Positions 35,351-38,040 of a stretch of 64,000 nt of DNA are shown in pieces. The stretch's first letter is position 1, and each line of letters begins with the position of its first letter. The position numbers and the translations under genes are program-made. This DNA is from Eledone cirrhosa. Lineage: Eukaryota. Location of the stretch: positions 334,428,001-334,492,000 of the forward strand of contig OZ024742.1 in the NCBI GenBank assembly GCA_964016885.1. The letters run 5' to 3'. Below the pieces are notes generated by a model. It was not told where the DNA came from, made no database searches, and saw only the letters and a list, made by a program, of their open reading frames with translations.

Positions 35351-35858
35351 TACTTCAATATAGTAAGATTGGAAATATATATATACATATATTTCCATAT
35401 ATATATATATATATTTCCCTATATATATATATATATATATATATATATATATATATATATATATATATATATATATATATATATATATATATATATATAT
35501 GCATGTCCATATATATATATGGATACATACACATACATATATATATATGTGTAAATAGATATATATATAAGTTTTAATATAATGAAACGAAATTTCATTT
35601 CTCACTCTTAGTACGGCACTTACTTAAATGTAAGTATGTATGTATACGTACATACATATATGTATACAGACACACAGTAGCATGCATATATATATATATA
35701 TATATATATACAGGTACACATATATATATGTACGTATCAGTTTAGCGGACGTTTATTATAACGCCCGCTTTGTTCGTTTGTAAACAAGCGGACAGCCTGA
35801 TTTATGCCGTACGGTGTTAAGGCAACACGTCACCTTTTTGTTCAACACTGACACAGGA

Positions 35859-35901
35859 ACGATGTACTAGTTTCAAGCTTCTTAGCTATCATCAGCACCG
35901 T
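35859..35901 (-). ncRNA. Minimal type I hammerhead (unit 1)
   Basis: ACGGTG-CTGATGA-T-AGCT aaga AGCT-T-GAAA-CTAG-TA-CATCGT. Confidence 0.9.
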
Positions 35902-36309
35902 ATACCCTTCTGCCAGATGGTTGAACGTTCGAAAGTATATACTTTCCTTATGAAAATTAACGGTTGAGCAGCCTAATTTGCATATCGTGTGAGTTCAGTC
36001 GGCCAGGCGTACCGAAAACGATAAGTTGTAATATAATGAAACGATATTTCATTTCTCACTCTTAGTACGGCACTTACTTAAATGTAAGTATGTATGTATA
36101 CGTACATACATATATGTATACAGACGTACAGTAGCATGCATATATATATATATACATACATGTACACATATATATATATGTACGTATCAGTTTAGCGGAC
36201 GTTTATTATAACGCCCGCTTTGTCCGTTTGTAAACATGCGGACAGCCAGATTTATGCCATACGGTGTTGAGGCAACCACGTCACCTCTTTGTTCAACACT
36301 GACACAGAA

Positions 36310-36352
36310 ACGATGTACTAGATTCCAGCTTCTTAGCTATCATCAGCACCGT
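36310..36352 (-). ncRNA. Hammerhead (unit 2), GAAA core mutated
   Basis: Same as unit 1 but TGAAAC changed to GGAATC. Confidence 0.7.
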
Positions 36353-36833
36353 ATACCCTTCTGCCAGATAGTTGAACTTTCGATAGTATATACTTTCATT
36401 ATGAAAATTAACGGCTGAGTAGCCTATTTGCATATCGAGTGAGTTCAGTCGGCCATGCGTTCCGAAAACGATAAGTTGTAATATAATGAGACGAAATTTC
36501 ATTTCTCACTCTTAGTACGGCACTTACTTAAATGTAAGTATGTATGTATACGTACATGCATATATGTATACAGACGTACAGTAGCATGCAAATATATATA
36601 TATAGAGAGAGAGAAGATTGAGGTTGGTAATGGCACATGGAATATATAAGAGACAGAATACTTATATATATATATATATACATACAGGTACACATATATA
36701 TATGTACGTATCAGTTTAGCGGACGTTTATTATAACACCCGATTTGTCCGTTTGTAACCAAGCGGACAGCCTGATTTATGCCATACGGTGTTAAGGCAAC
36801 CACGTCACCTTTTTGTTCAACACTGACACAGGA

Positions 36834-36876
36834 ACGATGTACTAGTTTCAAGCTTCTTAGCTATCATCAGCACCGT
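36834..36876 (-). ncRNA. Minimal type I hammerhead (unit 3)
   Basis: Core identical to unit 1. Confidence 0.9.
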
Positions 36877-37586
36877 ATACCCTTCTGCCAGATAGTTGAA
36901 CGTTCGAAAGTATATACTTTCCTTATGAAAATTAACGGCTGAGCAGCCTAATTTGCATATCGAGTGAGTTCAGTCTGCCAGGCGTACCGAAAACGATAAG
37001 TTGTAAAATAATGAAACGAAATTTCATTTCTCACTCTTAGTACGGCACTTACTTAAATGTAAGTATGTATGTATACGTACGTACATATATGTATACAGAC
37101 GTACAATAGCATGCATATATATATATATATATATATATATATATATATATATAGGTACACATATATATATATGTACGTATCAGTTTAGCGGACGTTTATC
37201 ATAAACTGATACGTACGTATATATATGTGTACCTGTATGTATATATATATATATACATATATATATATATATATATATATATATATATATACATATATAT
37301 ATATATATATATATATATATATATATATATATATATATATATATATATGCAATCTACTGTACGTCTGTATACATATATGTATGTACGTATACATACATAC
37401 TTACATTTAAGTAAGTGCCGTACTAAGAGTGAGAAATGAAATTTCGTTTCATTATATTACAACTTATCGTTTTCTGTACGCCTGGCCGACTGAACTCACT
37501 CGATATGCAGATTAGGCTGCTCAGCCGTTAATTTTCATAAGGAAAGTATATACTTTAGAACGTTCAACTATCTGGTAGAAGGGTAT

Positions 37587-37629
37587 ACGGTGCTGATGAT
37601 AGCTAAGAAGCTTGAAACTAGTACATCGT
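37587..37629 (+). ncRNA. Minimal type I hammerhead (inverted unit)
   Basis: ACGGTGCTGATGATAGCTAAGAAGCTTGAAACTAGTACATCGT. Confidence 0.9.
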
Positions 37630-38040
37630 TCCTGTGTCAGTGTTGAACAAAAAGGTGACGTGGTTGCCTTAACACCGTATGGCATAAATCAGGCTGTCCG
37701 CTTGGTTACAAACGGACAAATCGGGCGTTATAATAAACGTCCGCTAAACTGATACGTACATATATATATATGTGTACCTGTATGTATATATATATATATA
37801 TATAGATTCCGATTCAACCCGGAATAACGTATATATATATATATATATATGCATTCTACTGTACGTCTGTATACATATATGTATGTACGTATACATACAT
37901 ACTTACATATATATATATATATATATATATATATGTGTGTATGTGTGTGTGTGTGTGCGTCTGTGTGTGTGTGTGTGTGTGTGTGTGTGTGTGTGTGTGT
38001 GTGTGTGTGTGTGTGTGTGTGTGTGTGTGTGAGAGAGAGT

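Follow-up and report, generated by a model that had tools for sequence, protein, structure and literature searches.

Structure of the array

The window, by which we mean the whole stretch of 64,000 nt of Eledone cirrhosa DNA analysed here, carries an array of 3.4 minus-strand units joined 5′-to-5′ to 1.3 plus-strand units, with (TA)n all around. Its features are as follows.

35375..35566, unstranded: left (TA)n target microsatellite (TRF row 35375-35569)
35567..37199, minus: left arm, 3.4 units, with its 3′ end at the long site at 35567
35567..35631, minus: tail of ~60-65 nt separating the short from the long 3′ end site
35859..35901, minus: putative hammerhead 1, type I motif, core intact (motif scan, covariation)
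between 35865 and 35864, minus: predicted cut of hammerhead 1
36310..36352, minus: putative hammerhead 2, core broken (GAAU for GAAA at 36322-36325), predicted inactive
36604..36663, unstranded: 60-nt fragment of a different repeat, within the (TA)n tract internal to unit 3
36834..36876, minus: putative hammerhead 3, core intact, predicted cut between 36840 and 36839
36951..36958, minus: octamer ATGCAAAT, candidate internal promoter element
37194..37206, unstranded: 5′-to-5′ junction of the arms, with a short inverted overlap
37202..37908, plus: right arm, 1.3 units, with its 3′ end at the short site and the tail absent
37587..37629, plus: putative hammerhead 4, core intact, predicted cut between 37623 and 37624
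37805..37829, unstranded: terminal fragment of a different (TA)n-flanked repeat, within the (TA)n tract internal to the right arm
37909..37933, unstranded: right (TA)n target microsatellite, then (TG)n

The TRF period of 450 together with alignment bore out the unit starts that a sequence-only reading had proposed (35567, 36021, 36471 and 36996, the last a partial unit), and the inversion it had placed near 37200 was recovered as a strand switch between 518-nt arms that are 95% complementary. Read in RNA sense, the left arm is minus-strand and the right arm plus-strand, such that both 3′ ends point outward, the long one to the left and the short one to the right; the left arm is truncated at its 5′ end within the post-cleavage segment, and the tail of ~60-65 nt is found in this copy only at the outer end of the left arm. 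With (TA)n on both flanks, a target-site duplication is unreadable at the array. There is no coding capacity, as had been said (the longest ATG ORF across the array is 70 aa), and GC is 0.30-0.38.

Window units diverge by 4.8%, and the pattern is not star-like, with two variants of the other units absent from unit 1 and two variants common only to unit 3 and the inverted copy. Both insertions noticed earlier in the internal (TA)n tracts proved to be pieces of repeats present elsewhere in the genome: the piece in unit 3 matches one at locus L252 at 98%, and the piece in the right arm matches L182, L170, L091 and others. The window array is an aged, decayed and ordinary member of a dispersed hammerhead repeat family.

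Hammerhead motif and predicted RNA fold

One hammerhead per full unit had been claimed for the left arm, which held for units 1 and 3 (cores at 35895 and 36870) and failed for unit 2; the plus-strand copy does contain an intact motif (core at 37593), bringing the intact cores to 3/4 in the window, with 206/231 across family units. Because the unit 2 core reads GAAU, a left-arm transcript is predicted to give a ~975-nt dimer in place of the ~450-nt monomer that had been expected, and the monomer junction predicted at the same time (CTAGTA/CATCG) was found in the sequence.

The putative ribozyme possesses the elements of a type I motif (CUGANGA, GAAA and UH core plus stems I-III), with a stem I of 6 bp prolonged by a long rod, a U-U at the base of helix II in 10/14 aligned sequences, a helix III of one pair with a palindromic CUAG cap, and a cut at GUA. 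We identify it as a probable hammerhead from this motif and from covariation. In an alignment of 14 genomic sequences, drawn from this family and its relatives, 94.3% of cells in the stems pair, double changes occur in 6/15 hammerhead pairs and covariation stands at 0.380 versus 0.136 when shuffled; the independent lineages among them are few, and 46/500 shuffles match the count of doubly changed pairs. Core positions are barely more conserved than others (1.0% versus 1.4%). In Rfam no hammerhead match reached the gathering score and none was among the best 150 of 177 rows of an E-value scan; the Rfam matches were microRNA models on (TA)n, which we disregarded. Searched genome-wide, an exact 40-nt hammerhead pattern gave 413 matches and its reversed control none, so the motif is not a product of chance.

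Folding three monomers as circles gave z values of -13.5, -6.8 and -4.5 (30 shuffles each), with the ribozyme predicted to fold in two of the three and the predicted fold being a long rod that unites both monomer ends. By these predictions the monomer would form a stable self-paired circle in which the ribozyme is free to fold.

A dispersed family of over a thousand copies

A first look returned 3573 candidates genome-wide. A second exact pattern had 593 matches, and searches for exact ends found 199 long ends in younger subfamilies and 1573 short ends in the wider family, again with reversed controls of 0 in each case. The family is dispersed, non-coding and present in over a thousand copies in the genome. 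The loci that we sampled were the first-listed matches (mostly on contigs C1 and C2) plus top hits, and hence a non-random sample. The family also occurs in four sequence runs, which are uninformative on expression.

One stretch of contig C2 (L061-L065, G000:C2 60.568-60.612 Mb) is a ~44-kb satellite of the retrozyme unit with an 8-unit higher-order pattern, and this array grew at the DNA level. The ~4-kb spacing of exact matches there had suggested tandem autonomous elements of the Penelope-like (PLE) kind, a candidate refuted by the 8-unit higher-order repeat. Other retrozyme families, related to this one but devoid of a pure (TA)n tract inside the unit, are found at L068:2098-2298, L165, L152, L185 and L186; they have the octamer, the tail hairpin and the two end types in common with this family and nest in its (TA)n tract. 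An unrelated tandem hammerhead repeat of ~310 nt, with a CGCG loop and lacking the octamer, lies at L110:3723-4687.

The octamer ATGCAAAT occurs in the window also at 35976 and 36426 and is mutated in the inverted copy at 37505. It stands upstream of the ribozyme in 136/144 main-cluster copies among the matches listed, as well as in related families, and is a candidate internal promoter element. The promoter of newt satellite 2 uses an octamer. That satellite, a tandem hammerhead repeat as well, is described as having an internal snRNA-type promoter (PMC2220036), and the octamer here is conserved across families.

Long and short arm ends are paired

To evaluate how the arms end, we took 262 arms in 130 loci and dropped 39 (<90.5% identity or near the locus edge), leaving 223. 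Their 3′ ends comprised 95 long (83 at one base), 82 short, 23 in the internal tract and 23 other, such that 177/223 fall at two fixed sites ~60 nt apart; TA-rich DNA adjoins 89/95 long and 79/82 short ends (168/177). The 5′ ends (224) are scattered over the unit, 38 of them lying in the variable tract. The arbitrary start points foreseen for these copies are not borne out at the RNA 3′ ends, scatter being confined to the 5′ ends.

Arm pairs were almost always diverging (84 versus 2 converging). Both ends could be classified in 50 pairs, of which 48 were long+short, 1 long+long and 1 short+short (p 1e-12); the other 34 pairs have a tract or other end, and the duplicated locus L066 is counted twice. 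A second sample of 86 short-anchored loci, scored with a looser rule for long, gave partners that were long in 51, short in 2, other in 8, at the edge in 5 and none in 20, i.e., long+short in 51/53 classifiable pairs. Among 29 long-anchored loci the partner was short in 12, long in 0, other in 3 and none in 14. The 23 internal-tract ends show no preference of partner (8 long, 7 short), and several tract-end arms are cut there by other insertions.

These insertions carry the PLE footprint of a tail on one end: an inverted 5′-truncated arm, one tail and a microsatellite target. We interpret the window inversion as following from the paired long and short ends of a Penelope-like insertion, and consider PLE-type two-ended retroposition very probable for the family. 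Twin priming of the L1 type was also considered. Under that scheme the position of the inverted arm's outer end depends on where the other arm has its 5′ end; we rejected it because both outer ends are fixed here while the 5′ ends vary independently.

What served as the template

The arms run across the predicted cleavage site with little trace of a stop. Only 4/224 5′ ends lie within 5 nt of it, versus 239 crossings, in a sample drawn in part with a pattern that spans the junction; among 164 loci selected with different patterns, spacing was exact in 266/268 junctions, and all 12 arms with an incomplete crossing reach at least 3 nt past the cut. Since the cut site is read through exactly, a plain cleaved linear monomer is excluded, which leaves a circle or an uncleaved multimer.

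Unit comparisons speak to the choice between these. Units differ by 2.2% within an arm (137 pairs), 1.8% across arms (99) and 3.8% between loci (31,265), while diagnostic mismatches amount to 1.7% within arms, 1.6% between arms and 34.5% between loci; a rare variant is common to 38% of pairs versus 0.8%. Among 31 insertions with at least 3 full units, identical units, counted over the two arms together, number 8 in L068, 6 in L316 and 5 in L360. Two of the young arrays, L204 and L360, are identical in unique sequence and have (TA)n interruption patterns private to each, uniform in the units of both arms (4/4 and 6/6, respectively), and L316 and L326, whose unique sequence differs at 1 base, likewise have private uniform patterns. 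This tract comparison used 26 multi-unit loci picked by hand, and tract lengths by themselves separate four hand-picked young arrays weakly (p 0.049). Because private uniform (TA)n patterns occur despite identical unique sequence, we infer one monomer as the template of each insertion, most simply a circle. A circular monomer is in our view the probable template, and the retrozyme-like character and circular template put forward in the sequence-only reading gain support, though not from the evidence first offered for them.

The strongest competing account, which we regard as unlikely, is a PLE two-ended insertion copied from an uncleaved linear multimer of a young uniform array, with the ribozyme as a passenger and unit number rising through DNA-level duplication. 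Read-through of the cut fits it equally well, uncleaved RNA is described as the main template in vitro for a lizard PLE (PMC11167929), and 8/9 frog retrozyme dimers are reported uncleaved in vitro (bioRxiv 2026.07.22.740005). The contig C2 array shows DNA-level growth, and subset-shared variants are present: across 29 well-grouped insertions with at least 3 units (of the 31, two mis-grouped sets being left out) there are 66, versus 367 singletons, and a rare variant is fixed in all units of only 4/31 insertions. Against a multimer template stand the insertions of identical or near-identical unique sequence, every one with a uniform (TA)n pattern private to it, given that these tracts diverge fast among the units of aged arrays, and the subfamily variants fixed array-wide, which need repeated passage through one unit.

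Less probable again, the template could be a linear monomer, already cleaved, in which the long stem I keeps the two ends together; the enzyme would jump from the 5′ end to the 3′ end of that molecule and so mimic a circle. The predicted rod does unite both ends, and the monomer bottleneck would be explained without ligation, but stops or indels would then be expected at the cut, where nearly all junctions are exact and no arm stops.

The sequence-only reading had itself pictured rolling-circle copying with arbitrary starts, primed by annealing of the internal (TA)n to the target. The 23/223 arms that end in the tract and the scattered 5′ ends agree with that version, which we nevertheless hold to be very improbable: most 3′ ends lie at the two fixed sites outside the tract, paired long with short. 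The tract is not the main priming site, since a related family with no pure (TA)n tract has these two end types as well and several arms are cut in the tract by other insertions.

DNA repair can produce inverted arms, and window unit 3 shares its two variants with the inverted copy, yet a local tandem duplication with fold-back inversion and no RNA step is scarcely credible in view of the 413 exact hammerhead matches and the 84 two-armed loci with fixed ends in (TA)n, which are also the other genomic copies on which the sequence-only reading depended.

Candidate Penelope-like partners

The genome contains an intact Hydra-like PLE family, so labelled by motif, with recurring 821-aa open frames, a CxCX5C linker, a hammerhead and a (TA)n target; the CxCX5C linker is described for the Hydra clade of PLEs (PMC8557442), which is also marked by a C-terminal endonuclease and a DKT motif. 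Its own arm pairs were long+short in 8 of 11 and unclear in 2, and the 11th, scored short+short, proved on reading to contain a miscalled long end. A Neptune-like family, likewise labelled by motif, has fixed end sites in (TA)n.

Three chimeric insertions, each with one short and one long end, suggest PLE partners for the retrozyme. In L301 one arm consists of the retrozyme short end and a piece of Hydra-like ORF 92% identical to the intact family, and the other arm carries the long end of the Hydra-like family. In L165 a sister-family unit with its long end is combined with a Hydra-like ORF piece (98-99%), and the other arm ends at the short site of the Hydra-like family; in both loci the join lies ~22 nt before the short site. 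In L119 a retrozyme arm with a short end adjoins a Neptune-like arm, the latter bearing its longest end. Such chimeras could also be explained as nested insertion plus deletion, and we consider the chances that the Hydra-like family is the partner to be about even. A fourth candidate chimera, L065, proved to be a PLE nested in the internal tract and was set aside. Locus L156 allows more than one reading.

DNA similarity was absent between the unique segments of the unit and the terminal repeats of two PLE families (the genome has many more), and a Pfam scan of 59 flanking ORFs found LINE and PLE pieces nearby and no autonomous element carrying the unit. Several PLE copies lie in the window itself: a solo inverted terminal-repeat pair of the Hydra-like PLE at 20660-21030 (hammerhead at 20843; short end left, long end right), a Neptune-like PLE at 21160-25420 that belongs to a very abundant family and has an asparagine-rich RT frame of 810 aa along with an endonuclease arm in inverted orientation, and two more broken copies of other families at 6768-7805 and 43450-45250.

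Relation to known retrozymes and Penelope-like elements

The array family consists of short tandem hammerhead units, is non-coding, has GC <50% and is dispersed, all features of non-LTR retrozymes, a class whose units measure 150-450 bp or more and whose target-site duplications, if any, are long. The animal non-LTR retrozymes of coral, mussel and axolotl are likewise described as short tandem repeats with one type I hammerhead each, low GC and neither ORF nor LTR (PMC7229834). Further points of likeness given in that source are the one-pair helix III with a palindromic tetraloop in axolotl HHR_Amex1, the U-U mismatch at the base of helix II in HHR_Amex2 and a predicted self-paired circle with an exposed ribozyme (PMC7229834). 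Differences are the unit of 450-490 nt with an internal (TA)n tract, against 170-400 nt there, and the two-armed inverted insertions in microsatellites, the main text of PMC7229834 being without the words ‘inverted’ and ‘microsatellite’. Circles and cleavage are demonstrated for the coral, mussel and axolotl retrozymes (PMC7229834), whereas the present account draws on genomic sequence. The same source hypothesizes PLE-driven reverse transcription of circles.

Vertebrate non-LTR retrozymes are reported to depend on PLEs and, as here, to occur both in dispersed short arrays and in long satellite-like arrays (bioRxiv 10.64898/2026.07.22.740005). The case made there comes from co-occurrence and pLTR homology, with local DNA amplification favoured and no end mapping in the portion consulted; ours comes from mapped ends, insertion anatomy and chimeras, and a comparison with two PLE families showed no pLTR homology. 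Our literature search, with subscription journals mostly outside its scope, found no publication mapping paired ends or monomer bottlenecks of retrozymes.

PLEs are described with inverted arms and a tail on one end (PMC8557442, PMC3846280), the tail being the interval between two internal initiation sites, with both strands cut and extended (PMC11167929). Endonuclease-containing PLEs share with our family the partial tandems, the inverted 5′-truncated arm, a tail that is often confined to one end and the (TA)n targets (PMC8557442, PMC3846280, PMC11167929). They differ in that the present units have no ORF, a tail of ~60 nt versus 30-40 there, up to 8 or more identical units, and a long+short pairing that was counted and is nearly strict. 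No RT or GIY-YIG endonuclease ORF was found in the array, which therefore does not count as an autonomous PLE. Non-autonomous Chlamys elements, MRC1 among them, are described as non-coding PLE passengers, multicopy and head-to-tail, that resemble autonomous partners at the 3′ end and mostly lack canonical hammerheads (PMC8557442).

Proposed mechanism

Combining these observations, we think it likely on the whole that the window array is an aged retrozyme insertion made by a borrowed PLE enzyme that copied a circular monomer of ~450-490 nt round from both DNA ends. Tandem arrays would be transcribed, perhaps from an internal octamer-containing promoter, and hammerheads would excise monomers, likely as dimers given that helix III is a single pair capped by palindromic CUAG; a short palindromic helix III is described as implying cleavage as a dimer (PMC4209133). 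A host ligase would close the monomers, after which the PLE protein would cut both (TA)n strands and, from the two DNA ends, begin copying at the long site in one case and at the short site in the other. Both cDNAs would extend for a random length and be joined 5′-to-5′, producing non-integer inverted arms, and mutation, (TA)n slippage, gene conversion and nested insertions would then age the copy.

In a bolder form, which we put forward tentatively, every insertion would preserve, like a fossil, rolling-circle reverse transcription into the chromosome, and each array would be the clone of one circle. It is possible, and we say this with similar reserve, that a pair of Penelope-like enzymes primes both ends of the cut (TA)n at two set sites of one and the same viroid-sized RNA circle.

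The re-entry of retrozymes into the genome, by circle copying with a PLE partner, has so far only been proposed, and this family provides countable genomic evidence on both, with the PLE tail rule taking the form of near-strict long+short pairing. It also supplies what a direct test needs, namely a pair of mapped initiation sites, arrays of very recent origin and candidate enzymes. If the bolder reading is true, the young arrays and the intact Hydra-like candidate partner in this genome would make it the first system in which animal retrozyme circle-to-genome copying and a strict one-tail PLE rule could be reconstituted.

Other features of the window

Just left of the array, at 34194-34866, lies a separate small two-armed inverted insertion with 241-nt arms (95%) and its own hammerhead motif at 34710, which has a PLE-type build and belongs to a different family. 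Another hammerhead-like motif occurs as an inverted pair at 50872 and 50949, and also at L066 and L361. Elsewhere the window holds a (TA)n-rich tract of 1.9 kb at 29421-31297 and, at 55724-63860, a cluster of tRNA-Met(CAT) in both orientations with several degraded copies.
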